A stretch of 36,480 bases of DNA from Anaerolineae bacterium (GCA_016926575.1 JAFGOJ010000073.1:1-36480); one strand, 5' to 3'. Shown: positions 9,455 through 33,300, counted from the stretch's first letter. Notes: generated by a model from the letters alone, not told the origin. Numbers and translations: made by a program.

Positions 9455-9487
9455 AACAGATAGCTTGCAAAAACATGGAGGTGTATT

Positions 9488-9934: not shown

Positions 9935-9997
9935 GTGCGCCGCCAGTGGGTCCCGGGATGTCGAACGCGCTCCCGGGACCCACGAGAGGAGGTAGGG

Positions 9998-10549: not shown

Positions 10550-10560
10550 AAAGACACCAT

Positions 10561-10752
10561 ACCAGACTCTACTGAAAAAAGCCTTCAACCACAAAGAGCA
10601 CAAAGGACACAAAGAAAAACATGAAGGAATTGCGCGAGATTGCCCAAAAAACAGCACGAAGAACAAGAGAATCTTAAGGCGAATATTGAAAATCTTAGTG
10701 CTCTTTGTGTCCTTTGTGGTTGCCTTTCCTTTTTTTCAGTAGAGTCATACCA
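10561..10752. repeat. AT-rich element of about 190 bp bounded by imperfect inverted repeats (possible MITE-like insertion, structured RNA or bidirectional regulatory module)
   Basis: The left arm gactctactgaaaaaa (10565-10580) is the exact reverse complement of ttttttcagtagagtc (10731-10746). Inner arm segments (caaccacaaag / ctttgtggttg, plus shuffled agcac-aaag-gacac blocks) extend the pairing. GC content drops sharply relative to the flanking genes. Confidence 0.8.
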
Positions 10753-10773
10753 TTCTTCCAAAAGAGGTAACGC

Positions 10774-11142
10774 GTGAGCATACAGACCGAATTCGAATTC
10801 ACCCTGCCGGTGGGGTTCGTCGACCGAGAAGGCAACGTGCACAAGCAAGGCACGATGCGCCTGGCGACGGCAATGGACGAGATCACGCCGCTCAACGATA
10901 TGCGCGTGCAAGCCAACGAGGCCTACCTGGTCATCGTGCTCCTGGCGCGGGTGATCACCCGCCTGGGCAGCCTGCCCCACATCAACACCAGCATCATCGA
11001 AAACCTCTTCGCGGCCGACCTGGCCTACTTGCAGGAGTTCTACCGCCAGATCAACGAGAGTGGGAAAACCACGCGCCCGGTGCGCTGCCCGCACTGCAAC
11101 GAGGTGCTCGAAGTGGACCTGGCCAACCTGGGGGGATCGTAG
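10774..11142 (+). CDS. Phage-tail-assembly-chaperone-like protein (small conserved CIS protein between the tube and putative tape measure genes)
   Basis: 122 aa, GTG start with AAGAGG 6 nt upstream. The sequence MSIQTEFEFTLPVGFVDREGNVHKQGTMRLATAMDEITPLND...AYLVIVLLARVITRLG...CPHCNEVLEVDL resembles, from memory, proteins annotated as phage tail assembly protein in actinobacterial CIS loci. Position is as for the lambda G / P2 E chaperones. Confidence 0.6.
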   Translation: MSIQTEFEFTLPVGFVDREGNVHKQGTMRLATAMDEITPLNDMRVQANEAYLVIVLLARVITRLGSLPHINTSIIENLFAADLAYLQEFYRQINESGKTTRPVRCPHCNEVLEVDLANLGGS

Positions 11143-11303
11143 GCTACCCCCTCGACCGCCTGCACGAGGAGGTAGCCTACATCGCCTACCACTTCCACTG
11201 GCCGCTGATGGACATCCTCAATCTGGAGCACCGCCAGCGCCGGCAGTGGGTGGGCGAGATCGCCAAGATCAACCGCAGGCTGAACGAGGCCGGTAAAGGG
11301 TAA
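11136..11303 (+). CDS. Start-codon-less ORF in the -1 frame (55 codons; DUF6760-like by memory), candidate frameshift extension of 10774..11142
   Basis: Manual translation of the frame with codon starts divisible by 3 gives IVGYPLDRLHEEVAYIAYHFHWPLMDILNLEHRQRRQWVGEIAKINRRLNEAGKG, then stop TAA 11301-11303. The composition looks protein-like. There is no in-frame ATG or GTG upstream, and the frame is open back beyond 10980. The ORF begins right after the slippery-looking G GGG GGA at 11130-11136. Confidence 0.5.
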   Translation: MVGYPLDRLHEEVAYIAYHFHWPLMDILNLEHRQRRQWVGEIAKINRRLNEAGKG

Positions 11304-11309
11304 CGCGCT

Positions 11310-11495
11310 ATGGCATATATCGATCTCTACGCACCGCCGCTCCTCGGTCGTGACGTCGAAGACGAGGAGGCCACGACGTTTCGAGTGCCGATAGAGGACG
11401 TCGACCTGTACGCGCTGGCCGAAGAGGTCGCCCGCTTGCTCAAGCACGACTTGTGGCTGGAGCGGGAGCGCCGCAGCCTGCGCCAAGCGCGGTAA
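11310..11495 (+). CDS. Small hypothetical protein (61 aa) with a C-terminal ALA..V..LLK..L.LERERR motif
   Basis: The ATG lies 6 nt after the previous stop. The N-terminus is acidic (RDVEDEEATTFRVPIEDVDLY). The C-terminal 27 residues share 13 identities with the C-terminus of the 806-aa protein at 12213..14633. Confidence 0.5.
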   Translation: MAYIDLYAPPLLGRDVEDEEATTFRVPIEDVDLYALAEEVARLLKHDLWLERERRSLRQAR

Positions 11496-11506
11496 AAGGA
11501 GGCACA

Positions 11507-12187
11507 ATGGGTTTACTGGACAAAAGCATCACCCGACCGAAGATCAGTTCCACCGGCAAGCTGGGCTCGGCCGCGTCGCACCTGGGCAGCGCGCTCACCG
11601 CACGGGCCGCCGGCGCGGCCGGCACCGCCGCCACAATGGGCATCCGCGCGTTCGAGGAGGCCTCCGGCCTGCGCTTTGACCCCGCCCCGGCCTACCTCTT
11701 CTTCGTCGAACTGTCGGGCGTCATCGTCTCGCTCTTCACCGAATGCGGCGGCCTGGAGGTCAAGCGGGACGTCAAAGAGGTGGAAGAGGGCGGCGTCAAC
11801 AACTACGTCCACAAGCTCCCCGGCCGTCTCAAGTTCGACAATATCACCCTCAAGCGCGGCCTCACGATCTCCCGCTCGCTGTGGGATTGGATGATGCAGG
11901 GCCGCTACGACTGCTCGGTGCGCTGGATCAACTTCTCGATCATCCAGGGCGCACCAGGCCACAACATCGCCACCGCCCTCGGCGCCGACGTCGACATGTG
12001 GGGCTACGGCTTCGGCAAGGTCAAACACTGGGACGTCGAAGGGGCCTACCCGGTCAAGTGGAAAATGGCCGAGCTGAGTGCGTCCAGCAAGAATACGGTC
12101 ATCGAAAGCATCGAGATCGCCCACCACGGCGTGTCGCTCAGTTACGAAGCGCTCACGCCGATGAGCCTGGTTTCCGCTGCGTTCTAG
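11507..12187 (+). CDS. Tube-family protein, paralog 4, with an Ala/Gly/Ser-rich N-terminal extension of about 50 aa
   Basis: ATG 11507 is preceded by AAAGGAGG. The track start at 11453 lies inside the previous gene. The core YLFFVELSGVIVSLFTECGGLEVKRDVKEVEEGG...KLPGRLKFDNITLKRGL...WDVEGAYPVKWKMAELSA...ESIEIAHHGV fits the gp19-like tube family. Confidence 0.75.
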   Translation: MGLLDKSITRPKISSTGKLGSAASHLGSALTARAAGAAGTAATMGIRAFEEASGLRFDPAPAYLFFVELSGVIVSLFTECGGLEVKRDVKEVEEGGVNNYVHKLPGRLKFDNITLKRGLTISRSLWDWMMQGRYDCSVRWINFSIIQGAPGHNIATALGADVDMWGYGFGKVKHWDVEGAYPVKWKMAELSASSKNTVIESIEIAHHGVSLSYEALTPMSLVSAAF

Positions 12188-18288: not shown

Positions 18289-20403
18289 ATGCCACTGCCA
18301 GCGCCTAATCTGGATGATCTGCGGTTTCAACGGGACCTGGTCGATAGCGCCCGCAAGCGTATCGTTCACTATTGCCCGGAGTGGACCGAGTACAATCTGA
18401 GCGACCCGGGCATTACGTTGATCGAACTCTTCGCCTGGATGACGGAGTTGATCGTCTACCGGCTGAACCAGGTGCCGGAAAAGAACTACGTCGAGTTCCT
18501 CAACCTGCTCGGCATGCAACGTCAGCCAGCCAGCAGCGCACGCACCGACCTGACCTTCTGGCTCTCCGTCTCCCTGCCCATCAGCGCAGAGAACGAGACC
18601 CCGGTCGTCGTCCCTGCCGGCACGGAGGTGGTCTCCCGCCAGGTGGGGGACGAGGAGGCGGTCATATTCACCACCGACCGCCAGCTGACGATTTTGCCGC
18701 CTAAGCTGACCCAACTGCGACGTGAGGCGGATTTCCACAAGAACTACCTGCCGCGTCTGGGCGTCGAGACGTTCTACGCCTTCGACGAAATCAGGCCCAA
18801 ACCGGGCGACACGTTCTACCTGGGCTTCGAAGAAGAGCGGAACATCAGCGGGCACATTCTCGAACTCGCCTTCGAGTGCGAGCGTACCCGCGCCGTCGGC
18901 GTGCGCCGCGAAGACCCGCCCTGGGTCTGGGAGTGCTCGATGGGCGATGGCGCCTGGGAGGAGATCGCCCCCAGCTCACGCCAGGGCGAGAAGGACACCA
19001 CCGGCGGCCTCAACAACCCCAAGGGCAAGCTGACGCTCTACCTGCCGATGGGCATGCGCCCCCAACCGGTCTATGGGCGCAACGCCTTCTGGGTGCGCTG
19101 CCGGCTCGAACAACGCCGCCCCGAGCAAGGCATGTACACCGAATCCCCACGCGTGGCGAGCGTCGTCGCCCACACGCTCGGCGCGACGGTCCCTGCAACC
19201 CACGCGGTGATCCTGGAACGGGAGGAGCTGGGCCGCAGCACCGGCGATCCCGGCCAGTCCTTCCGCCTGGAATACGCGCCGATCCTGGCACTGGCAGACG
19301 GGGAAACGGTCGAGGTCGAAGAAATGCGCGCGGGCGAGCTCGTCTTCGTCCCCTGGAGCGCAGTGGACAACTTCGCGCACTCGACCCGCTACGACCGCCA
19401 CTTCGTCGTCGATACGGACGGCGGCGCGGTGCACTTCGGTCCGTCCGTGCGCCAGCCAGATGGCACGGTGCGCCAGTACGGTCGCGTGATCGAGAACGGC
19501 CGCCGCATCCGCTTCACGCGCTACCGACGCGGCGGCGGCGTGCCGGGCAACGTGCCCACCGACGCGCTCCAGGTGCTCACAACCTCGCTGGCCTACGTCT
19601 CCCGTGTCACCAACCTACGCCGGGCCACGGGCGGGCGGGACCCCGAAAGCCTGGACGAGGTCAAGGCCCGCGCCCGCCGTGAGTTGCGCGCGCAACTGCG
19701 CGCGGTCACCGCCGAGGATTACGAGCACCTGGCCATGAGCGCCAGCCGCTCCGTGGCACGCGTCAAGTGCAATGCGCCCACCGGCAGCCGCGACAGCACA
19801 TTGCCACCGGGGTCGGTGCAGATTCTGATCGTGCCCGCCGCCGCCGACGCGCTGCGCGCCGGCGACCTGTCGCGCTTGCAGGTGGACGAAGCGCTGGCGC
19901 GCACGGTCGAGGAGCACCTCGACCAGTACCGCCTGCTGACGACCACCCTGCGCATCGGTGAACCGACCTACATCGGCGTCCAGGTGCGCGCCGAGATCAT
20001 CCCCTCCGAGTACAGCCTCCCGGAAGCGGTCAAAGCCCGCGTCGCCGAACGACTGAAGGCGTTCATCGCGCCCCTACCCTTGCCGGAAGAGCCGGAACGG
20101 ACGGACGAGTTAGCAGGCGAGAACTGGGAGGGCTGGCCTTTCGGACGCAACCTGTACGTCGCCGAGCTGTTCTCGCTGATCCAGCGCGTGCCCGGCGTCA
20201 AGCACGTGCTCGACGTGCAAGTCAGTACGCGCACGGTGATCCCCTCACGCGAGGTGCCGCCGGACGTGGAGCAAACGGACGCGGAGATGCCACCGCTGAA
20301 GCGGTTGGAGCAAACGGTCATTCGCGTGCCCGCCGACGCACTGCTCTGCTCGCTCGACCACCAGATCGAACTGCACGCGCTGGAAGAGGACGAGGGGGAA
20401 TGA
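18289..20403 (+). CDS. Baseplate J-like protein (T4 gp6 / P2 gpJ; Afp11/Cis11-like)
   Basis: The N-terminus MPLPAPNLDDLRFQRDLVDSARKRIVHYCPEWTEYNLSDPGITLIELFAWMTELIVYRLNQVPEKNYVEFLNLLG is the typical start of a putative baseplate assembly protein. AVTAEDYEHLA and the size of 704 aa are also consistent. Confidence 0.9.
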   Translation: MPLPAPNLDDLRFQRDLVDSARKRIVHYCPEWTEYNLSDPGITLIELFAWMTELIVYRLNQVPEKNYVEFLNLLGMQRQPASSARTDLTFWLSVSLPISAENETPVVVPAGTEVVSRQVGDEEAVIFTTDRQLTILPPKLTQLRREADFHKNYLPRLGVETFYAFDEIRPKPGDTFYLGFEEERNISGHILELAFECERTRAVGVRREDPPWVWECSMGDGAWEEIAPSSRQGEKDTTGGLNNPKGKLTLYLPMGMRPQPVYGRNAFWVRCRLEQRRPEQGMYTESPRVASVVAHTLGATVPATHAVILEREELGRSTGDPGQSFRLEYAPILALADGETVEVEEMRAGELVFVPWSAVDNFAHSTRYDRHFVVDTDGGAVHFGPSVRQPDGTVRQYGRVIENGRRIRFTRYRRGGGVPGNVPTDALQVLTTSLAYVSRVTNLRRATGGRDPESLDEVKARARRELRAQLRAVTAEDYEHLAMSASRSVARVKCNAPTGSRDSTLPPGSVQILIVPAAADALRAGDLSRLQVDEALARTVEEHLDQYRLLTTTLRIGEPTYIGVQVRAEIIPSEYSLPEAVKARVAERLKAFIAPLPLPEEPERTDELAGENWEGWPFGRNLYVAELFSLIQRVPGVKHVLDVQVSTRTVIPSREVPPDVEQTDAEMPPLKRLEQTVIRVPADALLCSLDHQIELHALEEDEGE

Positions 20404-20407
20404 GCCA

Positions 20408-21379
20408 ATGACCGCTCCCGCCGTCGTAGGTCACGTTGCCAATGTTGGCCGCCGCTACCCCGGCGAAACGGTCGCGTTCCACACCCGCATCCGGGTGAGC
20501 GAGCCGCTCTCTGCCCCCACGTTGCGGGTCTCGCTGCCCCGCGAATGCGTGCTAGAGACGTACCGGGCCGTGGCGGGATTCGCCGGGGCTACCCCCAGCG
20601 TCGAAGTGGACCAGGAGCAGAACCACTATATGACGTGGACGTTCGACGGGGACGTAGCGGCCGGAAGCGAGCACGAGTGCGTGACCGTCTGCCGCATCGC
20701 GCCCGCCGGGCGGGACGTGAGGCTAGAGAGCCGGGCCGTCCTCACCGGTGCAGACGCTGCGCCGGTGGCCGAGGAAACGCTGGCATTGAACGTGGAAGCA
20801 CAGGGGCGCTACCTGCGCTACCTGCCCGAAGTGTACGAGCAAGATGAGTTGATGGGACGCTTCTTGATGCTCTTCGAGAGCTTCTGGGGCCCCATCGAGA
20901 CACAAATCGACCACGCGCATTGTTACTTCGATCCGCAGATGGCGCCGGCCTCCTTCCTACCATGGTTGGCTTCGTGGATGAATGCGACCCTCGACGACCG
21001 GCTGCCGGAGGAGCGTCAGCGGCTGCTGCTCCAGGCAGCGGTCCCGCTGTACCGCCGGCGCGGGACGAAAGAGGGACTAGAGCAGTATCTGGATCTGTAC
21101 ACCGGCGGCACAGCACACATCGTCGAGCACCGCGCACAGGATTTTGTCCTGGGGCCGGCGGCCCACCTGGGACCGGGCATCGCGTTGGGGCGGACGAACG
21201 TGCCGCACACGTTCACCGTCGTCCTCACCCTGCCGCCGGTCGGCGCGCCGAGCGGGAGCGACGAGCAAGCGGTCGCGGCGCTCGAGGAGCAGCGCCGCCG
21301 CGTCATCCAATCGATCATCGAGACCGAGAAGCCGGCTCACACGGGGTACACCCTCCACTTAGAGGTAAAAGAGATATGA
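20408..21379 (+). CDS. Phage tail protein, P2 gpI-like baseplate wedge component (Afp12/Cis12 N-terminal-like)
   Basis: RYLRYLPEVYEQDELMGRFLMLFESFWGPIETQIDHAHCYFDPQMAPASFLPWLASWMNATLDDRLPEERQRLLLQAAVPLYRRRGTKEGLEQYLDLYTG matches the conserved phage tail protein domain found next to baseplate J in CIS loci. Confidence 0.85.
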   Translation: MTAPAVVGHVANVGRRYPGETVAFHTRIRVSEPLSAPTLRVSLPRECVLETYRAVAGFAGATPSVEVDQEQNHYMTWTFDGDVAAGSEHECVTVCRIAPAGRDVRLESRAVLTGADAAPVAEETLALNVEAQGRYLRYLPEVYEQDELMGRFLMLFESFWGPIETQIDHAHCYFDPQMAPASFLPWLASWMNATLDDRLPEERQRLLLQAAVPLYRRRGTKEGLEQYLDLYTGGTAHIVEHRAQDFVLGPAAHLGPGIALGRTNVPHTFTVVLTLPPVGAPSGSDEQAVAALEEQRRRVIQSIIETEKPAHTGYTLHLEVKEI

Positions 21380-22548
21380 CCAAAAAAGACTGGCTGCAAG
21401 CATTTCCAACCAGGCGCATCAAGCCTTTGGACGGGCTGGCCGTGACGGCCGAGGTTTGGGAGGAAGAGCAAACGTACCACCGCCAGCGGCAGCGGTTCCA
21501 CGCGATGCTCGAACACGGGCCGGGGATCGTCACCGGGCTGGAGGTGATCGCCAGCGACCCGCCTGATACGGCGGTCTACGTCCTGCCGGGCATCGCCGTC
21601 GATCCGCAGGGCCAGAGCATCGTCCTGGTCGAGCCGGTGACCTACGACGTCGGGCAGAGCGCCGAGGGGTTGCTGTACGTGCTGTTGAGTTATGGGGAGA
21701 GCCGCCCGCGGGCCGCCGAAGACGCCCCGCCGGACGCCCCCCGCTACGTTCACGCCGAGTACAGCATCGAAGCGCGCGAAACGTGGCCCGACACCCCGTG
21801 CGTGGAGCTGGCCCGCGTCCGGCGGCAGGGCCACGGGGCGGCCATTTTCAACGCCCAGGATACCGCCTTCCCCGGCCCCAACGAGATCGACCTGCGCTTC
21901 CGGCGCGAGATCGGCGCGCGGCCGCAGGAGGCGGCGGCAATGGCCGTCAGTTACTTGGGCGGCGGGCGCACCGACGTGCGGCACGGGCAGGGCGCCAGCC
22001 ACGTGGCCCGCGCCTTCAACCGCAGCGAGCCGCACACTCGCCTGCACGTCGACCACAACGTGCCCCTCGGGCCGGGCCTGACGGCCTACACGCTGCTCTA
22101 CCTGGTCGGCCAAGGCTCTTTCCAGCTCAGCCGAGAGGAAATGCAGGCACTGTACGCCTTCATGCAGGGCGGTGGAACGGTGCTGATCGAGAGCTGCCGC
22201 CACGACACGGCCGAGGGCGAGCCGCCTGCCGACACCTACTTCTACAATCTGATGGGCGACCTGGGCCTGCAACTGACGGAACTGCGCTCGGACCAGCGCC
22301 TGCTGCGCGAGCCGAACCTCTTCGCCGCTCCCCCGGCCGGATTCGAGACGCAGGGCGCGCCGAAGGTGATCGTGAGCGAGGAGGCCATCTTCAGCACGTA
22401 CGACTATGGCTGTCTGTGGCAGGGGGAGCGCCGCGGACGGTCGGCATCGCGGGAGGAGATTCGCGCCGCGCTGGAATGGGGCGCGAACATCGTCGCCTAC
22501 GCCGTCGCCCGCCGCCGGCGCGTCAGAAGAGACGCACAAGAACGATGA
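21376..22548 (+). CDS. Hypothetical baseplate-linked protein with a C-terminal DUF4159-like domain
   Basis: ATG 21376 overlaps the previous stop (ATGA). The track ORF from 20920 adds an Arg/Pro-rich out-of-context N-terminus. The C-terminal half (TAYTLLYLVGQGSFQLSREEMQALYAFMQGGGTVLIESC...IFSTYDYGCLWQGE...WGANIVAYA) resembles DUF4159 motifs from memory. The N-terminal half is not recognised. Confidence 0.55.
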   Translation: MTKKDWLQAFPTRRIKPLDGLAVTAEVWEEEQTYHRQRQRFHAMLEHGPGIVTGLEVIASDPPDTAVYVLPGIAVDPQGQSIVLVEPVTYDVGQSAEGLLYVLLSYGESRPRAAEDAPPDAPRYVHAEYSIEARETWPDTPCVELARVRRQGHGAAIFNAQDTAFPGPNEIDLRFRREIGARPQEAAAMAVSYLGGGRTDVRHGQGASHVARAFNRSEPHTRLHVDHNVPLGPGLTAYTLLYLVGQGSFQLSREEMQALYAFMQGGGTVLIESCRHDTAEGEPPADTYFYNLMGDLGLQLTELRSDQRLLREPNLFAAPPAGFETQGAPKVIVSEEAIFSTYDYGCLWQGERRGRSASREEIRAALEWGANIVAYAVARRRRVRRDAQER

Positions 22549-23372
22549 GCGCATATTTGGAATTGGAAATTGTCGATAAAGAGGGATGGCGCAAACGGTA
22601 CGCGCTAGAAAAAGCCATCACCCACGTCGGCAGCGCGCCCGGCAACGACATCGTGCTGGAAGAATGGCGGGGAGCCGGCGTCGCGCCGCGCCACGTGCAG
22701 ATCATCACCCTCCCATCGGACAACCGGCGCTGTCGGCTGGTGAACCTGGGCGGGCTGCCGGTCCTGGTGACGGGTCTTGAGCGGCGCGCCATCGCCCCGC
22801 GCGCCTCGGGCGAAGTGGCCGTGGGGGAAAGCATTCAGATCGGCGAGTTCTCCTTCATCCTGAGCGGTTCTGACGGCAGGGCAAGCGCCGCTCCGGTCGA
22901 AAGCGCAGCGGTCGCCCACGCGCCTGCGGTGGTCGCGGGGCAACCCGTGCCGCCGCCCTCTCCGGTCGAACGCCTGGCACAAGCCCCAATGATGGGCAGA
23001 AGTTCCGGCGTGATCGGGCTGGAACTGTCGCTGGCACGAAGTGACCTGGAGCCGGGCCGGCCGATCGAGGGCGTGGTCAAACTGACCAACAAGGGCGAGA
23101 AGACCGGCGTGCAGTTCAAAATCGAGCTGGAGGGGTTAGGCGCCGAGTTCTACGAAATCGGTCCGGCGCCGATTCTGTTCCCTAACGCCGAACGGGACGT
23201 GACGCTCACGCTCAGGCACTCGTGCAGCCCGCACCCACCCGCCGGGGAGCGCCAGATTCTGGTGCGTGTCACCGCCCCCGAGGCCTATCCGGGAGAGGTT
23301 GCCACGGTCTCTCAGACCATCCGCATCGTGCCCTATTACGAGCACGCGGTGCGCGTGGAACACGTGGAGTGA
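22545..23372 (+). CDS. FHA-domain protein with a C-terminal beta-sandwich (CARDB/DUF11-like) domain
   Basis: ATG 22545 overlaps the previous stop (ATGA). The N-terminus is FHA-like: YLELEIVDKEGWRKRYALEKAITHVGSAPGNDIVLEEWRGAGVAPRHVQIITL...GESIQIGEFSFIL. The C-terminal GRPIEGVVKLTNKGEKTGVQFKIELEG...ERDVTLTLRH is typical of Ig-like sandwich repeats. Confidence 0.8.
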   Translation: MSAYLELEIVDKEGWRKRYALEKAITHVGSAPGNDIVLEEWRGAGVAPRHVQIITLPSDNRRCRLVNLGGLPVLVTGLERRAIAPRASGEVAVGESIQIGEFSFILSGSDGRASAAPVESAAVAHAPAVVAGQPVPPPSPVERLAQAPMMGRSSGVIGLELSLARSDLEPGRPIEGVVKLTNKGEKTGVQFKIELEGLGAEFYEIGPAPILFPNAERDVTLTLRHSCSPHPPAGERQILVRVTAPEAYPGEVATVSQTIRIVPYYEHAVRVEHVE

Positions 23373-24280
23373 TGCCCATGGGGGAGTTCGATTGGGTCGT
23401 CTTCATTTTCCGCGCCTTGGTCGTCGTCTGCATCGTGCTGGCCATCGCCATCGACGTCAATTTGATCCTGGCGATTTTGCGCCTGCAGGAAAGGCGCTAC
23501 CAGAAAACGATGCGCGTCGAGTTGCGCAACCTGGGTAACACGACCACGCCCTACCAACTGCGCGTGGAAGAGACAGACGCCGCGCTCGTGTTCTTGTTCG
23601 ATCTGGAAGAGGAGAGCGAGGAACCCACGTTGGAGGCTGCGCCGGAGCCACCACAAAAGCCTGCGGAGGCCAAGAAGCCCGGCGTCGATTTGAAGCAGGC
23701 CCAACAGACTGCCGGAAAGGTGCGCGGGGTGAGCTATTTCGTCTCCAACCTGCTGGGGACGCTGGCCAGTATCCTGCCGAACTCGATGGCGGGGCCGCTG
23801 CGGAGTTGGGCCGGGAAGCTGCGCCAACAGCAAGCCGCGGTGAGCCGCGTCGAGCGCGCACCGCGCCAGGCGACCAGCCGGGCGCGCGAGGCCGGGCGCG
23901 GGTTCAGAATCGGCCGGCGGAAGGCCCCGGCCACTGCGGGCGCGCCCAGGCCCGCCCCCGCACCGAGAGCGCAGTCCGCACTGAGGGCCGGCGCCACGTG
24001 GCGGCGCACCCCTGCCGTCGAACCGGGGGAGATGTTGAACATCAACCTGTGGGTGCGCCCCGCCGGCAGGCCGCACCAGGCCGCCGTGTACCCCTTCGTG
24101 CTCCTATCGCGGGCGGTCGGCCCGAGCGATCCTTCACTACGGAGAGACGCCTGTGACGTCCACATCGAGGGGGTCTCCTGGCTCCGCCACGCCCTGCCGT
24201 TCATTTTGTTCGCCGGATTGGTGATTGTCGAAGTCGCGTTGTTGTGGTGCTTACTGACGGAAACGAGGATTTTAGGGTAA
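23372..24280 (+). CDS. Membrane protein with N- and C-terminal hydrophobic helices and a basic/Ala-rich central region
   Basis: ATG 23372 shares one base with the preceding TGA (TGATG). TM-like segments are WVVFIFRALVVVCIVLAIAIDVNLILAIL and ALPFILFAGLVIVEVALLWCLL. No family was recognised. Confidence 0.6.
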   Translation: MPMGEFDWVVFIFRALVVVCIVLAIAIDVNLILAILRLQERRYQKTMRVELRNLGNTTTPYQLRVEETDAALVFLFDLEEESEEPTLEAAPEPPQKPAEAKKPGVDLKQAQQTAGKVRGVSYFVSNLLGTLASILPNSMAGPLRSWAGKLRQQQAAVSRVERAPRQATSRAREAGRGFRIGRRKAPATAGAPRPAPAPRAQSALRAGATWRRTPAVEPGEMLNINLWVRPAGRPHQAAVYPFVLLSRAVGPSDPSLRRDACDVHIEGVSWLRHALPFILFAGLVIVEVALLWCLLTETRILG

Positions 24281-24295
24281 GGGAGAGGGCATCTC

Positions 24296-27200
24296 ATGCC
24301 GGCAAACGAACAGTTAGAGATCATCAGCCCGAGTGGAGAGATCACATTCTTCGAATTGGACCCTCGGAAAGGCGTGGCAAACGTCGGGCGGCACCCGGAT
24401 AACGACATTGTCATCGATGCGCCAGGGGTGGCCCCGTTCCACGCGCTGCTGGACTGTAACCAGAGGCCCTACCGGTTGATGCTTCTCAGCGCCGAGGGAG
24501 GCGCCACCCTGCACGGAGAAACGCTCTCACCCAACGCCTCCGTCGACCTGAACCCGTGGGACAGCCTCGAAGTGGGGGGCTACACGGTGATCTTGCTGGA
24601 CAACGCGGTGCCCGCCGGCGCGCCGCCGCCTCCACCGCCTCCCGCCGCTGCGCCGCGCGTTCCGGTTCAGTCCGCTCCAGGCGTGCCGGCGACGATCCCA
24701 CCTCCGCCGACTGAGGTACCGGTACGCCGTGGTGCTCCCTTCCCCGACCAGACCGACGACGTGGTCATTGTCGATCTGTCGGAGCGCGAGTGGACCATCG
24801 ATGTGGAGCAGAGCGCCACATGCCTGACGAGCATCACCAACGGCGGCGACATCGTCGCCTCGTTCTACGTCCACGTCGAGGGCGTGCCGCAGGGCTGGGT
24901 CGTCACCGCACCGGCAGAGGTCAACCTCAACGAGGGGGAACGGGCCACCGTGACCGTCTCCATCACCCCGCCGCGCCATCCCTCCAGCCGTGCAGGCACG
25001 TACCCCATCGCCGTGATCGTGGCCTCGTCCAACTATCCGGGCCACGTCAGCCAGCGCAGCGCCACACTGACCCTCAACCCGTACTACGAGTTCGCCGTGG
25101 GCGAACTGTCGCCCCGCGAGCAGACCGTCGGTTGGCGCGATCCAACCGGCGAGGTGACGCTCAATCTGGTCAACAAAGGTAACAGCGACGCCACTTTCCG
25201 ATTGGACGGCACAGATGACCGGCGCGTGCTCAACTTCGAGTTCGAAGTACCCGGCGAGGACTCCAGGCTGGCGCGCCAGGCCGAGATGCGCCTCCCGCCG
25301 GAGCAGACCTTCGGCATTCCCACAAACGTCACCAGCACATCGCGGCCGCTCTTCGGGCTGCACAAACAGCGCCACCCCTACACCATCTCCGTCGCCATGG
25401 TGCAGGGCGAGCAGTCGCCGCGCGCGCTGATGGGCGAATTGCACGTGCGGCCGCTCATCGGCCCCATCCTGATGGCATTCCTCGCCCTCGTGCTGGGGCT
25501 GCTGATCATCTTGATCTTCCGGCCCAAGATTCACAGCTTCACCTACCGGTACAGCGGCATCATCTACCCCGGCGAAACGATCACCCTGGCGTGGGAGGCA
25601 TCGCCCTTCACCCAACTGGTGATCCAAGAGGACTGGCTCGAATCGGGCGGCAGCTCGACCGTCATTCTCGGCCCCGACGAGCGGCAGCGTTCGGTCAACC
25701 CGCAAGAGACCACGCGCTACACGCTGATCGGCAACAATATCCTCTCGCGCATCATCCAGTTCCTCGAAGTGACGCGCCAGTTGGAAACGTTGGGAGCCGA
25801 CGGCATCGTCCACGTGGGCGTGCTCTACGCCGCCATCAACGAATTCGACGTGATGCCATCGAGCATCGTGGAAGGGGAAACCGTGACGGTGTTTTGGGAC
25901 GTAGCGGACGCCGACGCCATCGAGCTGCTGCGCAACGGCGTGCCCGTTCAGCTTGCCGAGGGGCAGGTGCAGTACACCGACGCGCCGGTAACCAGCCCGA
26001 CGATCTACACCCTGCGGGTGCGCAGCAACTTCAGCGACCGCGCTCCCGACGAGTGGGACGAAGAGATGGCACGCGACGTCATCGTGCGCCCGCCCACCGC
26101 AACCCCTCTGCCCCAACCGTCCATCGTCCAGTTCGACGTCTCACCCCGCGAAGTGTACGCCGGCAAGAGTGTCACCATCACCTGGGAGGTCGACGCCGAG
26201 AGCGTGCTGATTTTGGGCGGGCCTGAACCGGTGGCGAGCAATTCTCAGACCGGGTACGAAGTGCAGACACTGCCCCAGCCGGGGACCTTTTCCTACCGGC
26301 TGACCGCCACCTACGCAGATAACACGGGCCAACAAGACCCGACGATTTCCGAAGAGGTGATCGTCGTGCGCGTGTTGGAGCCGCCGACGCCGACGCCCGC
26401 GCCCGTGCCCCCCACCATCACCAGCTTCGAGATCGTGCCCGTCCAGGTGACCCAGGGCGGGAGCGCCCAACTGGTGTGGTCGGTCAGCGGCGAAATGGTG
26501 CGTATGGACATTTCCTACGCAACGCAGGGAAACGTGATCTTCGCCGGCACGAACAAGTCGGGGAGTTTCCCCGCGCCGCACGTCGACACGGTGGGCATCC
26601 ACACGTACATTCTGACCGTCTACGACGCGAACGACGAGGCCACCAGCCAGACGAAAGTGCTCACCGTCATCGAACCGCCGCCGCCGCCTACGGCGACGCC
26701 CCTGCCGTTGGCGGTGACGTTCGAGGCGCAGGGGCTGCGGCCGGGCGTCGACGTGGTGACGCCGATCAACGTGACCGTCAACAGCCGCACCTACAGCGTG
26801 GCTCCCGGCACGAAGGTCAAACTCACCTGGCAGATCGACAACGCCGACACCCCCGAGGTGACCATCAGCCGGAACGGCACGCAGATTCACAGCCAAGTCG
26901 GCCCCACCGGCATCTACGAGGACACAGACGCCATCTACGCGACGACACAGTACCAGCTCCACGCCGAGTACGAAGGGCTGAGCGCAGACGCGCTGGTCAG
27001 CATCGTTCCGTTGGACCTGGACGTGCCGCCGCCGCCCTACGACGTCGATGGGGCACTCACGGCCTCGAACACGCTGTCGGTCACCTGGAAGTACACGCCA
27101 CCGGAGAACGTGTACGCGATCACCGGTTTCGTGGTGTGGCGCGCGCCCGATCCCTACACGCTCTTCACGCCGGTCGCGGAAACCACCGATACCGCGTGCG

Positions 27201-27355
27201 ATCCGCAATGTGGGTGGGAAGATACCGTCACGCCGAACTGCGGCTATGCCTACTACATCACCGCCATCTACCTCGACCGGTACGGGGACCGTCAAGAGAC
27301 GGAACCCAGCGCGGAACGGTTCTACAGCGGCCCGTGCCCTACACCGACGCCGTGA
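24296..27355 (+). CDS. Bitopic FHA-domain membrane protein: N-terminal FHA, Pro-rich linker and beta-sandwich domains, a single TM, then extracytoplasmic Ig-like/FN3-like repeats
   Basis: RBS GGGAGAGGG precedes ATG 24296. The FHA region is GEITFFELDPRKGVANVGRHPDNDIVIDAPGVAPFHALLD...LEVGGYTVILLD. The TM is LIGPILMAFLALVLGLLIILIF (about nt 25453-25518). The C-terminal 600 aa contain repeated beta-rich modules separated by PPTPTP / PPPPPTATP linkers. Confidence 0.8.
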   Translation: MPANEQLEIISPSGEITFFELDPRKGVANVGRHPDNDIVIDAPGVAPFHALLDCNQRPYRLMLLSAEGGATLHGETLSPNASVDLNPWDSLEVGGYTVILLDNAVPAGAPPPPPPPAAAPRVPVQSAPGVPATIPPPPTEVPVRRGAPFPDQTDDVVIVDLSEREWTIDVEQSATCLTSITNGGDIVASFYVHVEGVPQGWVVTAPAEVNLNEGERATVTVSITPPRHPSSRAGTYPIAVIVASSNYPGHVSQRSATLTLNPYYEFAVGELSPREQTVGWRDPTGEVTLNLVNKGNSDATFRLDGTDDRRVLNFEFEVPGEDSRLARQAEMRLPPEQTFGIPTNVTSTSRPLFGLHKQRHPYTISVAMVQGEQSPRALMGELHVRPLIGPILMAFLALVLGLLIILIFRPKIHSFTYRYSGIIYPGETITLAWEASPFTQLVIQEDWLESGGSSTVILGPDERQRSVNPQETTRYTLIGNNILSRIIQFLEVTRQLETLGADGIVHVGVLYAAINEFDVMPSSIVEGETVTVFWDVADADAIELLRNGVPVQLAEGQVQYTDAPVTSPTIYTLRVRSNFSDRAPDEWDEEMARDVIVRPPTATPLPQPSIVQFDVSPREVYAGKSVTITWEVDAESVLILGGPEPVASNSQTGYEVQTLPQPGTFSYRLTATYADNTGQQDPTISEEVIVVRVLEPPTPTPAPVPPTITSFEIVPVQVTQGGSAQLVWSVSGEMVRMDISYATQGNVIFAGTNKSGSFPAPHVDTVGIHTYILTVYDANDEATSQTKVLTVIEPPPPPTATPLPLAVTFEAQGLRPGVDVVTPINVTVNSRTYSVAPGTKVKLTWQIDNADTPEVTISRNGTQIHSQVGPTGIYEDTDAIYATTQYQLHAEYEGLSADALVSIVPLDLDVPPPPYDVDGALTASNTLSVTWKYTPPENVYAITGFVVWRAPDPYTLFTPVAETTDTACDPQCGWEDTVTPNCGYAYYITAIYLDRYGDRQETEPSAERFYSGPCPTPTP

Positions 27356-27388
27356 CGGGCTGAAATATTCGGCCACGAAGGCACTCAT

Positions 27389-30300
27389 ATGAAACGAAAG
27401 AATCGTCCCAAGGGCTTCGTCAATCGAGCACCAGCCAGTTTCATCTCGACTCTGGTCCTGGTATGCGCTTTGGCTGCCCTGACCACGCCGGTCGGGGCAG
27501 GTTCGACTCTGAACCAGGCACTCGATCCCCTCTCGCCGCGTTCCCCGGCCGCTGACCTGCTCGTGCTCAGCCAATCCGCTCAGACCAGCAGCGGCACGCC
27601 CGGCATCGTCTACAACGGTGGGACGGTGACGTATACCCTGACGCTCGAAAATCAAGGCTCGACAGCCATCACCAACATTCTGGTCAAAGACTTCCTGCCG
27701 CGCGAGGGCGAGACGGTCTATTACCTGCAAAACACAGCCTGCGTCACGCCCGACTATGCGTGTACGCCGATCGACAAGACCTACGAAATTCCCCTCCCGT
27801 CGGGCAACACCGTTGAAGTGGCAGCCACACGCGAGATTAGTTGGAGCATCCCCAGCCTGGGCCCCGGCGCATCCGTCGCGCTCCGCTTCGTCGGGCAGGT
27901 GCTCGGGCAGCCCGACGGGACGGTCTTCACCAACAACGCCGAAGCCACCTACAGCGGGAACGTTGTCCGAAGCGCCCCGCTGAGCCTTACCGTGGTCGTA
28001 CTGGTCGACGTCAGCGGCGAGGCGGGCATTTCCACAGTGCCGACGTGGTTCTCCCAGGACGTCGGCGGCACGATCAGCCAGGACTGGGGCGACTTCGACC
28101 GCGATGGACTGCTGGACCTGGCGCTGGGTTCCTCGATCGGCGTCTCGGTCTACCGTAACGACGGCGAGAACCTGAGCGAGACACCCGTCTCCACCGCCGC
28201 CGATGACCCCTACCGCCCGGCCTACGGCGTGCGCTGGGCCGACGTGATCTCCGACATCGCGGGATGCCTGGAACTGGTCGTCGTAGGCGATAGCGTGAAC
28301 CACAGCTCCATCGGCGCGGGCATCAACTACGTCTACCACTACGACGGCAGCACCTTCGTCGAAGTCAGCAGCTTCCCCAGCGCCTACCAACTGGTGCGCC
28401 TGGAGCCAGGCGATGTCGACGCCGACGGGGACGTCGACCTGATCGGCAGCACCAACGCCATCAATGCCCCCTGCAATGTCACCCTCTACCTCAACGACGG
28501 GAGCGGCAGCTTCGGCACCGAAGCTTGTCTCAGCGAGTACGCCACCGCCGCGCTCGCCGCCGGCGACTACGACCGCGACGGAGACCTCGACCTGGCGGTG
28601 GGCGCATTCCCAGGAACGATCCAGCTCATCCAAAATGCCGGCCCCGTCTCCCCCGACGTCAATCCCTTCGACACAGACGCACCCATCCTGCTGGAAAGTT
28701 TCCTGGAATACATCCCCTACGACCTGGCCTGGGGCGATTTCGACCAGGACACCGATCTGGACCTGGCCGCAGCATACCCGATCCAGCGCGCCGCGCAGGT
28801 GTACCGGAATCAGAGCGCCGTCCTGACGCCGTTCCAATCGCTGACTACCGGCCCGTTTCTGACCCCTCTCGCCATCGATTGGGGCGATTTCAACGGTGAC
28901 GGTCAGTTGGAACTGACCGTGACGGATTCCCCCCCCGCTTTCTACGCCTACGACGCCACACAAGACCGCTTCGAGCGCTGGGAGCTCGACCTGCCGGATA
29001 ACAGCGGCCAGATTTGGAGCGTGCGCGGCATTGACCTCTACAACCAGGCCAACCTCGACCTGGTCATGACCAACCGTGACGGCCCCAGCCAGATTTACCC
29101 GGCCTTCTCCCCCAACCTGGAGCCCCACCTGACCGAAATCACCCCCGTGGGCTGGGGGAGCAACAGCGTGGCCTGGGGCGACGTGGACAGCGACGGCGGG
29201 TTGGACCTGCTCTTCGGCAGCAGCCCGGCGCCGAACTCGTCCAGCTACCTCTACCACAACGTGGACGGCACGTTCCCCACCGGGCAGGGCCTCGCCGACG
29301 GATTCGGCCCTCACGTGGTCGCTTTCGGCAACGTCGAGCAAGATACGGTGCTCGATATGGCCATCGGCGCGCCTGCCGCGCTACTGGTCTACCTGGACGG
29401 CGCAATCACGTCTCCCATCGACGTGCCCTCCGAGCAGGCGATCCTCAGCCTGGCGTGGGCCGACCCCGACGACGACGGCCGCCTCGACCTGTTGGTGGGC
29501 TACGCGGCCGATGATGGCGGACTGGGGCGCGTCGCCTTGTTCCACTTCGATGGCGCGACGGCCACGACATCCTTCACCGCCACCACCGCCGGCGGCGTCC
29601 GCGGCCTGGCCTGGGCCGACGTCGACCGCGACTACTACCTGGACTTTGCCGCCGTCACCGACGCAGGTGCGCTGCAACTGTACCGCAACACAGGCGACGG
29701 CGCCTTCGAGCTCGACTGGCAATCGCCCTCCCTGACCGCCCCTCGCGCGGTGGCCTGGGCCGACGTCGACGCCGACGGCGACCTCGACCTGGCAACCGGG
29801 CACTACGGCACACAGGACCTGGTCTGGGAAAACGACAACGGCGCATTCGAACCCACCCCTATCGGGCCGTCGGACGGCAAGACCACCTGTCTGGCCTGGG
29901 GCGATTGGAACAACGACGGCTACCCCGAACTGGCCGTGGGCACCGACGACCGGCAGCGGGACGTCGTCTACGCCAACCTCGGCAGCGAGCCCGGCGCGCT
30001 GCGGCTCTACCCACTGTGGCAGAGCGAGAGCGCCGCCGCCACCGGAGGCCTGGCCTGGGGCGACGCGGACGGCGATGGCGATCTGGACCTAGCCGTCAGC
30101 CGCAAGGGCGGTTCACGCAGCGGCTTCTACGAGAATACGATGTGGCCCGCCGCACACTTCACCGGCCTCAACACGCTGCTCGATCCGGCCTTGCCCAACA
30201 CCCCCGCCTACGTCTCCGTCGCGCGGCCCGGCACGACCCCGGATGCCTATTTCTACGCCTCGCCCGAACTGGTGACCGGCCCTAATCACCCCACCGTCAC

Positions 30301-33300
30301 CATCGCCTACCGGCTCTTCGACCCCGAGGCCGTGCCCGCAGCCGAAACGTTCTTCGAGTATTCGCTGGACGGCGGGGGGACATGGGCGGTAGCTGCCCCC
30401 GACGCCGCCTCGCCCCTGCCCACCAACGAGACGAGCCGTTCCGGCACGCCACACACCTTCGTTTGGAACGCCCGCGCCGACGTCGCCATCAGCGACGACG
30501 CCCGCTTCCGCGTCCGAGCCATCCACCAGGACCCCGTGGGCAACTCGCAGCGCGCCACCAGCGTCGGCGTCAGCCCACCTTTCCGCATCCGCAGCCTGGA
30601 CTGCTATTGGCCTGCCGGCGCAGGGATTATTGTCAGCAACGTGCACCCCGAACTGGGCGAGGAGATCATTCTCACCGCCACGTTGGACTACGGCAGCGGA
30701 CAGATCAACGCTACGTGGGATATGGGGGACAGCACGCTCCAGTATGGCTGGACCATCACGCACACGTACACCAGCCACGCCATCTACACCACGATCCTGC
30801 GCCTGGACGGGCCGGCCTGCCCCGTAGCGCGGCCGGCGTATGCGCGGGCCGACATCACCGTCGGTTTGGGGTACCTGGCCAACAAAATCTACCTGCCGCT
30901 GGTGTCGCGCTCGTCGACTGCGGCGCGCCTGGCTCCGGCCCCTGCCGTGCCAGAGGCTGCACCTGTGCAGATCGTGTCGGGGCAAACCATTCCTACCCCT
31001 GCCCCAATGCCACCCGCACCCGCACAGGCGACATCGAGTACAGAAGACACCGCGCGCGCCGCCACGATGGAGAGCGACCTCATCCAGGTCAGCCGGAACC
31101 GGATCGGGTTCCAGAACCAGCCCACCATCAACAGCGACGGCCGCTACGTGGCCTTCTGGTCCACCGGCGACTTCGATTCGTCGGGCCAGCGCAGCAACCC
31201 CGACGGGAACATCGAGATATTCCTGGCCGAAATCGAATCCGTCAAAGAGATCAGCTACACGCAAGTCACCAGTTCCACGGGCAGTATCCTCGGCGGGTTC
31301 AGCCTCTACCCAGACATCGACGCTGCCGGCAACACGGTCGCCTTCTTCTCCGACGGCGATTTGATCGAAGGCGAAAACGCCGACCTGAACTTCGAGATCT
31401 TCGTGGCCGAAATCAACAACGGCATCCCTTACCTGACCCAGGTGACCCACACCCCGCGCGGCGTCAACATCATGCCGTCGATCAGCAGCAACGGGCGCCG
31501 CGTCGTCTTCATCTCCAACCAGGATTTGGACGGCGGGCGCAATGCCGACGGCAACCAGGAAGTCTTCGTCGCCGAGCTCGACAACGTGGGGCAAGTCAGT
31601 GCCATCGTCCAGACCACCGACACGTCCGACTGCTTCAACGACCGGCCCTCGCTCAGCCAGGACGGGCGCTTCGCGGCCTACGTCTCCAACTGCGACGGCA
31701 ACCGCGAGATCCGCCTCGTCGAGTTCGACAGCAGCGGCCAGGCCGTCGCCACGCTCCCGGTGACCGATTCCGCATCGGGGTACAGCGACAACCCGTCCAT
31801 CAACGGCGATGGCAGCCGCATCGCCTTCGTCTCTACGATGGGCGACGCCGCAGGCCCGGCCCAAGTCTACGTGACCGAGATCGATACCGGCGGGCCGGAC
31901 GTCCTGTCGGTGGCAGCAGTAACCGACGACGACAAACACAAAGCCCACCCCGCCATCAGCGCCGACGGCCTGCGCCTGGCCTACATCCGCATCGAGTCGC
32001 CCACCGTCCGCCGCCTCAGCCTCTACGACGTCCAGAATCGCAACGAAGTGCTGTTGGACACCGGCGACGATAACGTCTACCCCGCACTAGACGCGGACGG
32101 GCGGGGCATGGCCTTCATCGCCAACTGGGACGTACTCATCACCTACCCGCCGGACATCGATTTGAGACTCACCAAGGCCGCCTCCCCGGCCATCGTGGGG
32201 GCCGAGGACCCTCTCACCTACACGCTGTCGGTCACCAACCAGGGCAGCGCGGCGATAGCGGGCAGCATCATCAGCGATACCCTGCCCTACGGCGTCGCCG
32301 CGCAGTTGCCGGAGGACCTGGCCGACTACGTCGACGACGACGGCACGATCAGCGGGTTTGGCGGCGGCACGCCCAACGGCGCAAGCTGGGACCCGGATGC
32401 CGCCGTATTGACGATGGACGACCCCTCCAGCGGCGAGGTCTACTTCGACTCGCGGGTGATGCACAGAGGGAATGGCGCGCACGGCTGGAACTCCGTGGCC
32501 CTGCTGCCCGAGCGGCCCATCGGTATGCCTATGCCAGACAACAACACCTTCGAGACCGGTTACCCCACCGGGAATGTGGATATGGCAGACAACGCCCTCT
32601 TGCTGCACTTCGACGACCTGGTCAATTCGGAAGTCTTCCTGGACACGTCGGGGGGCGGGCACGATATGACTTGCCCGATGGCGAGCTGCCCCGCCGCCGG
32701 TCAGGAGGGCGTGCTGGGCAACGCCCTCACGTTCGACCCGGCATACCACCAATCGATCACCCGCGACAACACCGACCCCGCCACCAGCTCGGACCTGGTG
32801 CTGGCAAACGATTTCACCATCGCCCTGTGGGCCAATCCAGAGAGCATCGACCGCCACGCGGTGATGATCTCCAAGCACGTCTACATCCCCTCGGGAGACG
32901 GGGACGTGGTGCATTTCGGCATCAACAGCGGCCTCTACCGCTTCAAACTGCGGGACGTGGTCCACGAGGAGGGCGCAGCGCAAACCGGCTGGCAGCACCT
33001 GGTCGTCGTCGGGCGCACCATCGACGCGGGCACGCGCACGGAGGTGGCGCTGTACCGGAACGGCGACGTGTTGTGGGCACACACGTACAACACCATCGCC
33101 GACGACGTGGCCGACGGGATGTGGGGCGTGGGGAACGACTTCGATGGCGAGTACGGAGCCGACAACTTCTTCGACGGCGGCATCGACGAGGTGGCAGTCT
33201 TCAACCGGGCGCTGGATGCCCAGGAGGTGGAGGACATCTATCTGCGCGGCGCGCTGCGGGTGCGCTTCCAGGTGCGCTCGTGCGACCAGGTCACCTGTCC

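Follow-up and report, generated by a model that had tools for sequence, protein, structure and literature searches.

A putative membrane-docking module encoded behind the baseplate genes of a class IId-like contractile injection system in Anaerolineae-class Chloroflexota

Results

A four-gene chain follows the wedge genes

The stretch of DNA analysed here, hereafter the window, is 36,480 nt long and comes from an Anaerolineae bacterium (GCA_016926575.1, JAFGOJ010000073.1:1-36480). It is a whole 36.5-kb contig, and our statements at the genome level are limited to it. Profile scans of its open reading frames (ORFs) identified a complete contractile injection system (CIS) operon on the + strand. 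Directly behind the two baseplate wedge genes of this operon lie four genes, which are the subject of this study and encode a 390-aa protein with a DUF4159 domain, an FHA-like protein (FHA1), a protein with two transmembrane (TM) segments, and a second FHA-like protein (FHA2).

The wedge gene Cis11 (18289..20403, + strand) encodes a baseplate J-like protein (Baseplate_J/TIGR02243, E = 4.7e-117), and Cis12 (20408..21379, + strand) encodes a Tail_P2_I/TssG-like protein (Tail_P2_I, E = 3e-12; TIGR02242, E = 1e-28). The sheath, Cis11 and Cis12 are closest to the solved cytoplasmic CIS of S. coelicolor and S. venezuelae, and we therefore assign the locus, by similarity, to a class IId-like (Streptomyces-like) CIS of an Anaerolineae-class Chloroflexota bacterium. 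For instance, the sheath matched the Streptomyces CIS structures 8bky/9gtp over its full length (E = 1.2e-160), the best solved relative of Cis11 was the S. coelicolor CIS baseplate protein 9gtp_1K (E = 1.4e-122), and residues 138-246 of Cis12 matched S. coelicolor Cis12 (9gtp_E, E = 3.6e-14). In addition, the hallmarks of an extracellular CIS (eCIS) were all present, namely the Cis15 AAA ATPase, the Pvc16_N cap, eCIS_core, CIS_tube-LysM, VgrG, PAAR and gp25. Meanwhile, the TssB/C, TssJ, TssL, TssM and ClpV families were not matched among the scanned ORFs (21 on the + strand and one on the - strand), which were all eCIS-type or unrelated. A prophage tail or a defence system was also considered and set aside; the eCIS hallmarks are complete in the window, which lacks capsid and replication genes.

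A first-pass annotation of the same sequence had described the genes behind the baseplate as an unbroken operon-like chain, and direct reading of the junctions bore this out. The stop of Cis12 overlaps the start of the 390-aa ORF by ATGA at 21376-21379, this ORF overlaps FHA1 by ATGA at 22545-22548, and FHA1 overlaps the two-TM ORF by TGATG at 23370-23374, with the ATG of the latter at 23372. The ATG of FHA2, at 24296, stands 15 nt past the preceding stop, and the spacer contains AGGGAGAGGG; the gap from FHA2 to a following giant ORF (start 27389) is 33 nt. There were zero terminator-like sites on the + strand from 20408 to 27389, and terminator-like sites in total were at chance level (12 vs 11.4 in shuffles). 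Furthermore, family scans and hydropathy recovered the DUF4159 domain, the two FHA-like domains and the TM segments at the positions where they had been placed.

The four genes are syntenic with the baseplate genes in relatives

Homologues were found in Chloroflexota metagenome-assembled genomes (MAGs), mostly labelled Anaerolineae (Anaerolineales, Caldilineaceae, Thermoflexales, Ardenticatenales, Litorilinea and Ca. Roseilinea), and loci of the window type are called lineage A below. The co-occurrence with CIS baseplate genes that had been proposed was challenged by looking for loss of synteny in these relatives, and the outcome did not refute it. In the forward test, 80 genome loci anchored on the gene of the 390-aa protein (the adaptor) were scored by tblastn, the denominators being loci with enough sequence. 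Upstream of the adaptor gene, Cis12 lay no more than 2 kb away in 72/72 loci. On the downstream side, FHA1 was present in 59/59 loci where 5 kb or more was available, and FHA2 in 51/51 where 8 kb or more was available. The two-TM protein, which is poorly conserved, was detected by tblastn in 42/51, and a homologue of the giant protein followed FHA2 in 33 of the 46 loci with at least 10 kb. In the reverse test, FHA2-anchored loci with at least 9 kb carried Cis11-Cis12-adaptor-FHA1 upstream with three exceptions: in L105 the module is directly behind the Cis15 ATPase gene, in L119 it is just upstream of the ATPase-cap-sheath genes, and in L095 no CIS gene was seen. Away from CIS genes there were only short, distant N-terminal FHA2 matches. 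About 100 genomes at the species level keep this gene order. Together, the four genes form an accessory module that is dedicated to the CIS baseplate operon and strictly syntenic with it.

The adaptor combines a TssK-like shoulder domain and a DUF4159 head

The adaptor (21376..22548, + strand) consists, according to profiles and fold search, of a shoulder domain (residues ~22-180) and a DUF4159 head (~185-390). It is soluble, and by hydropathy a TM segment was absent from the window protein and from 76/79 homologues. Its family comprises 166 representatives at 50% clustering with E ≤ 1e-30, mostly full-length. DUF4159 (PF13709) covers residues 233-376 (E = 1.5e-14; 54.5 bits vs the gathering cut-off of 25.9). 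Residues 22-109 match the NCBIfam family CIS13_fam (NF053767; E = 4.3e-13) at model positions 14-103 of 392, and with 49.3 bits vs the curated cut-off of 370 bits the adaptor is not a full member of that family. Judging from this alignment, the part common to both is the N-terminal baseplate-binding domain.

Structure models were built as monomers from 18-sequence alignments, and the AlphaFold model of the adaptor reached a predicted local distance difference test score (pLDDT) of 77. Foldseek ranked 4i66 first among PDB entries (E = 1.2e-7, target TM-score 0.73). The alignment covers about half of the model, and we assign it on the model to the flavodoxin-like C-terminal DUF4159 half. Matches 2-11 were nearly all TssK (5y0e, 6n38 and 5mwn; E = 1.6e-4 to 8e-4, probability 0.96-1.0) and were assigned, again from the model, to the N-terminal half, i.e., the shoulder domain. 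The TssK family itself gave no match for the adaptor in Pfam or NCBIfam scans, and the head is DUF4159 and not TssK-type. In addition, a Foldseek search against BFVD showed resemblance to phage receptor-binding and tail-fibre proteins, and some homologues have a coiled-coil stalk between both domains, as in a fibre. A PDB profile search with the adaptor family returned weak matches only (Cis19, E = 0.11; the GIFT domain of IFT52, E = 0.2). A PHROGs scan found nothing for the adaptor, FHA1 or the two-TM protein, and only an Ig-repeat match for FHA2.

FHA1, the two-TM protein and FHA2 share two building blocks

FHA2 (24296..27355, + strand), a bitopic protein of 1019 aa, consists of a degenerate FHA domain (1-103), a disordered linker (104-141), two immunoglobulin (Ig)-like domains, Ig1 (150-268) and Ig2 (270-370), a TM helix (386-408) and a long C-terminal part. 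Its profile matches were PF00498 (E = 6.3e-7; 30.2 bits vs the 20.7 cut-off), Yop-YscD_cpl (E = 2.9e-7), FixG_C and choice_anchor_T, and the FHA domain aligns to OdhI/GarA. The single TM segment corresponds to nt 25451-25519, in agreement with the first-pass annotation, and the Ig-like chain that had been placed outside the membrane appears in the model as six beta-sandwich domains past the TM helix (410-1010; pLDDT 78.8). Foldseek matched this model to generic tandem-Ig chains only (titin, contactin, GhpA), which did not inform function. TM and topology calls were made here from hydropathy and charge counts rather than by a trained predictor. FHA2 has no signal peptide, and K+R counts are 1.9 before vs 1.1 after the TM helix; it is predicted to be bitopic with its N-terminus inside and, like the CisA protein of Streptomyces, is coded after the wedge genes.

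FHA1 (22545..23372, + strand; 275 aa) is soluble and begins with a degenerate FHA domain (1-107), which a disordered linker connects to an Ig-like domain (~155-270); a TM segment was absent in 68/71 homologues. Its only match, to Yop-YscD_cpl, was sub-threshold (20.7 bits vs 33.2), and it is below every Pfam cut-off. Nevertheless, it is a paralogue of FHA2 residues 1-268, comprising FHA, linker and Ig1 (hhalign probability 99.7%, E = 5.5e-26).

The two-TM protein (23372..24280, + strand; 302 aa) is a hairpin with TM segments at about residues 8-36 and 268-297, where hydropathy gave segments 9-27 and 268-286. Its residues 37-81 align to FHA2 279-321 (hhalign E = 4.4e-6) and its residues 215-284 to FHA2 332-398 (E = 2e-5). 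The loop is thus collinear with Ig2 and the TM helix of FHA2, with a basic and disordered stretch of about 130 aa interrupting it, and the second TM segment corresponds to the FHA2 helix. The predicted topology is N-out, loop-in and C-out. The 235-aa loop was placed in the cytoplasm because of the flank charges in 20 homologues (K+R 3.45 after the first TM segment vs 0.95 in the N flank), and the N-out topology agrees with longer homologues, which have a signal or anchor, VWA and Big_7 ahead of the first TM segment. Homologues of 740-1300 aa occur in many loci (e.g., L017:14702-17332, L021:12093-15974 and L058:5790-8624), with VWA/Big_7 predicted outside the membrane. DUF4159 and VWA are also found together in BatA-like contexts. 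The construction of FHA1, the two-TM protein and FHA2 from two common modules (FHA-Ig1 and Ig2-TM) suggests that they form a hetero-oligomer.

Sister lineages carry the FHA domain on other proteins

An odd FHA2 match in L132 led to the recognition of a second type of locus, lineage B (L132:3444-7832; L140-L221, e.g., L140:10001-14407 and L141:10001-21005). In lineage B, Cis12 has an N-terminal canonical FHA domain (PF00498, E = 1e-18) with invariant Gly-Arg, Ser-Arg and His, and the architecture of FHA plus Tail_P2_I was found in at least 119 protein clusters. After Cis12 come one to four proteins composed of a Hanks Ser/Thr kinase, a canonical FHA domain, two Ig domains, a TM segment and an ectodomain. 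A same-strand kinase domain lay downstream in 56/58 loci with at least 5 kb, at a median distance of 107 nt. Residues 30-647 of the window FHA2 match these kinase-FHA-TM proteins with E-values down to 1e-33; therefore FHA2 is a homologue of these proteins that lacks the kinase, and this relationship also fixes its predicted N-in topology. Together with the lack of a signal peptide and the flank charges, the kinase fusions are also why we place Ig1 and Ig2 in the cytoplasm. The DUF4159 adaptor was present in no lineage-B locus. Adaptor and kinases are close to mutually exclusive, L023 being an adaptor locus with a kinase domain.

The Cis12 of the window also has an extra N-terminal domain of about 133 aa (20408-20810), which is absent from the 190-aa Streptomyces Cis12 and occupies the same place as the lineage-B FHA domain. 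A cryptic FHA or Ig fold in these 133 aa was considered and rejected (hhalign probabilities <5%).

In a further type, lineage D, which includes Dehalococcoidia (L222:2993-4678; L223-L235, e.g., L223:9947-14495), the TssK-like DUF4159 adaptor is itself fused, at its N-terminus, to a canonical FHA domain whose Arg, Ser, Arg, His and Asn are invariant. The next gene encodes an FHA-Ig-Ig-TM protein, and there is no kinase nearby. Finally, L236 (9977-16250) has a plain adaptor and then three tandem Ig-Ig-TM paralogues without any FHA. The Cis11 region of L236 is seemingly duplicated or split (two Cis11 and two gp25 matches).

Compared at the level of sequence, the constant core of these loci is Cis12, the adaptor and the Ig-Ig-TM proteins, and the FHA domain wanders among all three. 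This shifting among Cis12, adaptor and membrane proteins is the pattern expected of proteins in mutual contact. Read as Rosetta-stone evidence, the fusions tie the baseplate, adaptor and membrane proteins together.

The FHA domains of the window lineage are degenerate

The first-pass annotation had raised a phosphothreonine-dependent trigger at this locus. This part of the idea was not supported for the locus, in that the canonical phosphate-binding residues are lost in both FHA domains. In alignments with OdhI/GarA and with the canonical sister-lineage FHA domains (FHA1 aligns to the Cis12-FHA domains with hhalign probability 97.9%), the canonical Arg of FHA1 is replaced by Ser in 63/72 homologues and the canonical Ser by Ala in 42/72. 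Of the FHA2 homologues, 51/59 have Ala at the position of the canonical Ser and 35/59 retain the Arg of the Gly-Arg pair, and a conserved Asn is lacking. Furthermore, Yop-YscD_cpl was the best Pfam model for FHA1 and gave a lower E-value than PF00498 for FHA2. The YscD cytoplasmic domain has an FHA fold that does not bind phosphopeptide.

Regex searches found neither Hanks kinase catalytic-loop/DFG motifs nor PP2C motifs in the window or in the 80 lineage-A loci; the first Hanks regex (HRDxK) misses HRDIRPN kinases, and a relaxed form was used later. A kinase-domain tblastn over 140 records (2.26 Mb) of lineage-A and FHA2-anchored loci gave L023 as the sole lineage-A match, where the kinase domain sits after the giant gene (1 of ~110 lineage-A loci). 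Since these are degenerate FHA domains that resemble the YscD scaffold type, docking in this lineage is most likely independent of phosphorylation. On the domain evidence, the phosphorylation idea does hold for the sister lineages, with canonical FHA on Cis12 and kinase-FHA membrane proteins next to it, and lineage B is a candidate for a phosphorylation-gated baseplate.

The giant protein, optional inserts and other features of the window

The module is followed by a gene for a giant 2760-aa protein (27389..35671, + strand) with Pfam matches to DUF11, about nine FG-GAP repeats, PD40, LamG and four SdrD_B repeats. Its N-terminal signal or anchor is a hydrophobic segment (18-36) behind MKRKNRPKGFVNR, and no obvious C-terminal sorting signal was seen in it. 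It is probably a secreted or surface protein that forms the outer part of the module.

Some loci have additional genes within the module. A gene for a PKMT-type protein lysine methyltransferase (domains Methyltransf, MethyTransf_Reg and PKMT_2nd) lies between adaptor and FHA1 in both loci scanned for it (L005:11347-12984 and L017:11208-12806), and an insert of this size or larger occurs in about 29/71 lineage-A loci. In one locus, a sortase gene (L066:6310-7113) lies between adaptor and FHA1, which hints at cell-wall anchoring of a module protein.

Elsewhere in the window, Cis15 is an AAA ATPase with a winged-helix domain by profile match (+ strand). Between the Cis15 ATPase and cap genes lies a candidate effector or cargo, a 984-aa protein (3391-6345, + strand) that has eCIS_core (DUF4157; residues 249-325) and, at its C-terminus, an OTU-like cysteine protease. 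The region 9008-12187 (+ strand), between the sheath gene and an 806-aa ORF, holds four paralogues of the tube family (148, 148, 204 and 244 aa) as well as a 122-aa ORF that had no family match. The 806-aa protein had no family match in profile scans, and its role as tape measure is a guess. At one end of the operon lies a C-terminal fragment of a UvrD/PcrA-like helicase (16-1017, + strand), whose stop overlaps the ATPase gene start, and at the other end a Nudix hydrolase gene (35741-36454, - strand). A symmetrical pair of promoter-like sites was noted at ~36357-36425.

Discussion

A proposed docking complex and its alternatives

We propose that the four genes, probably with the giant gene, encode a complex that docks the class-IId CIS baseplate to the cytoplasmic membrane, and we give this reading a probability of about 0.55. 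The make-up of the module agrees with a membrane tether, as the TssK-like adaptor and the FHA-Ig protein are soluble, the two-TM protein is a hairpin and the FHA-Ig-Ig-TM-ectodomain protein is bitopic. From the gene anatomy, folds, paralogy, predicted topology, synteny and fusions we infer contacts, stoichiometry, and the direction and consequence of firing, as follows. The shoulder domain of the adaptor, probably as a trimer, would sit on Cis12, the TssG/Tail_P2_I equivalent, as TssK does on TssG, with the DUF4159 head directed away from the baseplate. FHA1, the two-TM protein and FHA2 would form their hetero-oligomer at the inner face of the membrane, and the DUF4159 head and/or the degenerate FHA domains would bind it. 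Outside, the Ig chain of FHA2 (610 aa) and the adhesin-like giant protein may reach through the wall to the cell surface, and the optional VWA and Big_7 domains would also lie outside the membrane. Docking would place the particle at the membrane and probably license firing. In the sister lineages, the same connection is apparently controlled by Hanks kinases. Thus, of the earlier suggestion of a membrane-tethered and phosphorylation-gated CIS, the tether agrees with module make-up and synteny, and the gating is not supported here, where the FHA domains are degenerate and no kinase is linked.

Several points weigh against this docking model. The TssK likeness concerns a single domain, with whole-chain TM-scores of 0.2-0.3 and an N-domain pLDDT of 50-85. 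Ig1 and Ig2, which we place in the cytoplasm, score best against families that are usually extracellular (choice-of-anchor T and FixG_C). The contacts are inferred from sequence, and the adaptor and membrane partners are candidate interactions. Every related sequence comes from a MAG. In addition, the IId systems of Roseiflexus and Deinococcota float free in the cytoplasm (PMC12998442), and therefore stable anchoring is no given.

The locus might instead encode an ordinary released eCIS, in which the 390-aa protein serves as a short tail fibre and binds a receptor of target cells through its DUF4159 domain, and the FHA, TM and giant genes belong to a separate surface or adhesion operon that is neighbouring or co-regulated. 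The classical tail-fibre position of the 390-aa gene, the match of its N-terminal domain to fibre baseplate-anchor domains and phage receptor-binding proteins, and the hallmarks Pvc16_N and eCIS_core would all suit this. However, the stop/start overlaps and the co-occurrence of 59/59 and 51/51 across orders speak for one unit, the sister lineages fuse FHA directly to the fibre-like adaptor or to Cis12, full-length FHA2 homologues almost never occur apart from CIS genes, and the nearest solved relative is the non-released Streptomyces system. We consider a released particle highly improbable. A purely regulatory role, in which the FHA-Ig proteins are chaperones, assembly checkpoints or a sensory input and do not hold the baseplate at the membrane, also seems unlikely to us. 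FHA proteins of type VI secretion systems (T6SS) are assembly regulators, and the optional PKMT-type methyltransferase and VWA domains suggest regulatory elaboration, but the constant core of adaptor and Ig-Ig-TM proteins exists without any FHA in L236, which suggests a structural rather than a signalling partner. Moreover, a purely regulatory scheme leaves a TssK-like adaptor without an evident task.

The docking complex could also be gated after all, with FHA1 and FHA2 reading a phosphothreonine mark set by a kinase and phosphatase encoded elsewhere and thereby controlling assembly or firing, as Fha1/TagH and PpkA/PppA do in T6SS. Both proteins have the FHA fold, FHA2 retains the Gly-Arg pair in 35 of the 59 homologues, and the sister lineages have canonical FHA domains and adjacent Hanks kinases at the same genomic position. 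One MAG even has both lineage types, and therefore kinases could act in trans: L033 (lineage A, adaptor and no kinase) and L176 (lineage B, FHA-Cis12 and kinase) lie on the same 5.4-Mb sequence, CAWAGA010000002.1, and cross-talk is conceivable. Against this stand the loss of both phosphate-contacting residues in FHA1, the loss of the canonical Ser and the lack of Asn in FHA2, the better fit of the YscD-type, non-phosphopeptide-binding model to both proteins, and the rarity of kinase domains in lineage A together with the absence of kinase and PP2C motifs from the window. Hence such gating is quite unlikely in the window lineage.

With regard to the direction of firing, the sequence fits either T6SS-like outward firing or action on the own cell as in Streptomyces and cannot tell the two apart. 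A bolder and rather doubtful extension of the docking model is that filamentous Chloroflexota independently made an eCIS-type machine into a T6SS-like, envelope-spanning and contact-dependent weapon. The adaptor would couple the wedge to an FHA-Ig-TM ring, and the ectodomains and giant adhesin would sense a neighbour and license outward firing; in the sister lineages, receptor-type Hanks kinases would throw the switch via the Cis12-fused FHA.

Comparison with known systems

Holding or recruiting the baseplate at the membrane, as proposed here, would correspond to what TssK with TssJLM does in T6SS, to what Cis13 and Cis12 do in Anabaena (PMC8894136) and to what has been proposed for CisA in Streptomyces (PMC12237407). 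The arrangement shares several features with T6SS. The adaptor N-domain has the TssK shoulder fold, its gene stands behind a TssG-like (Tail_P2_I) wedge gene, the order is wedge, adaptor and membrane complex, and FHA proteins occur alongside the machine. However, the adaptor head is DUF4159, genes for TssJ, TssL, TssM, TssB/C and ClpV are lacking in the window, and, compared with Fha1/TagH-PpkA-PppA, the FHA domains are of a degenerate type, with neither a kinase nor a phosphatase linked. The host phylum is also generally regarded as single-membraned. Meanwhile, YscD/PrgH of type III and EssC of type VII secretion systems likewise place an FHA fold of non-canonical type at the cytoplasmic face of a secretion scaffold that spans the membrane once. 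This likeness is one of architecture only, and the window proteins have an outside Ig chain instead of ring-building motifs and no ATPase domain.

In S. coelicolor, CisA (SCO4242) is encoded at the same position after the wedge genes, is bitopic with its N-terminus inside and is required for firing (PMC12237407); it is needed for both membrane association and firing (PMC12237407, PMC10020575). FHA2 belongs to the same CIS class and the same slot, and it is likewise predicted to be bitopic and N-in, its cytoplasmic part being partly disordered and its outside domain folded. By its published description, CisA differs in that it lacks FHA and Ig domains; its N-terminus is disordered, and its C-terminal outside domain is substrate-binding-like (PMC12237407, PMC10020575). 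It is predicted to contact Cis11 directly, and it is one protein in Streptomyces compared with four or five here, including a soluble TssK-like adaptor that is absent from Streptomyces. The thylakoid-anchored CIS of Anabaena has a Cis13 TM fibre, a Cis12 extension and a Cis19 crown (PMC8894136; PDB 7b5h). In both cases, an eCIS-type particle would meet a membrane via modified fibre-position and wedge proteins, Cis12 has an extra domain, and the adaptor N-domain is related to Cis13 (E = 4.3e-13) and weakly to Cis19 (E = 0.11). In Anabaena, however, the fibre-like protein has its own TM segment, whereas here the adaptor is soluble and the TM segments are in separate proteins; the membrane is the thylakoid there and would be the cytoplasmic membrane here, and FHA or DUF4159 is not mentioned for that system (PMC8894136).

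The eBAP3 fibres that occur with Tail_P2_I were already likened to TssK with TssG and are predicted to sit on Tail_P2_I (PMC12923769). They share with the adaptor a shoulder-type N-terminal baseplate anchor and the Tail_P2_I wedge, but they carry receptor-binding modules of the lectin, Ig or enzyme kind at their ends and are interpreted as extracellular (PMC12923769). DUF4159, FHA and Chloroflexota are absent from the text and supplements of that paper (PMC12923769). In a study of Chloroflexota CIS, Roseiflexus particles were free-floating, CisA homologues were absent and FHA was not mentioned (PMC12998442). In the searchable full-text literature, which leaves most subscription journals outside, we found no report of eCIS/CIS loci linked with FHA, Hanks kinases or DUF4159 outside T6SS. 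Thus neither the adaptor and FHA/membrane module nor the lineage-B layout of FHA-Cis12 and kinase has a description in the literature searched, although membrane-associated CIS with accessory adaptors as such are known.

Significance

How CIS other than T6SS find the membrane and decide to fire is an open question with two answers so far, the TM fibre of Anabaena and the poorly understood CisA of Streptomyces. The module described here would be a third solution, with more parts and in well above 100 Chloroflexota genomes. The natural fusions (FHA-Cis12, FHA-adaptor and kinase-membrane protein) point to pairs for contact tests, and the model of a phosphorylation-controlled baseplate can be tested directly in the sister lineages. 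In addition, a TssK-like adaptor on a Tail_P2_I wedge would bear on the evolution of T6SS-style anchoring from phage tails. Anaerolineae-class bacteria have been reported as abundant in wastewater sludge, sediments and hot springs, and therefore this system may matter for how their filaments interact or die.

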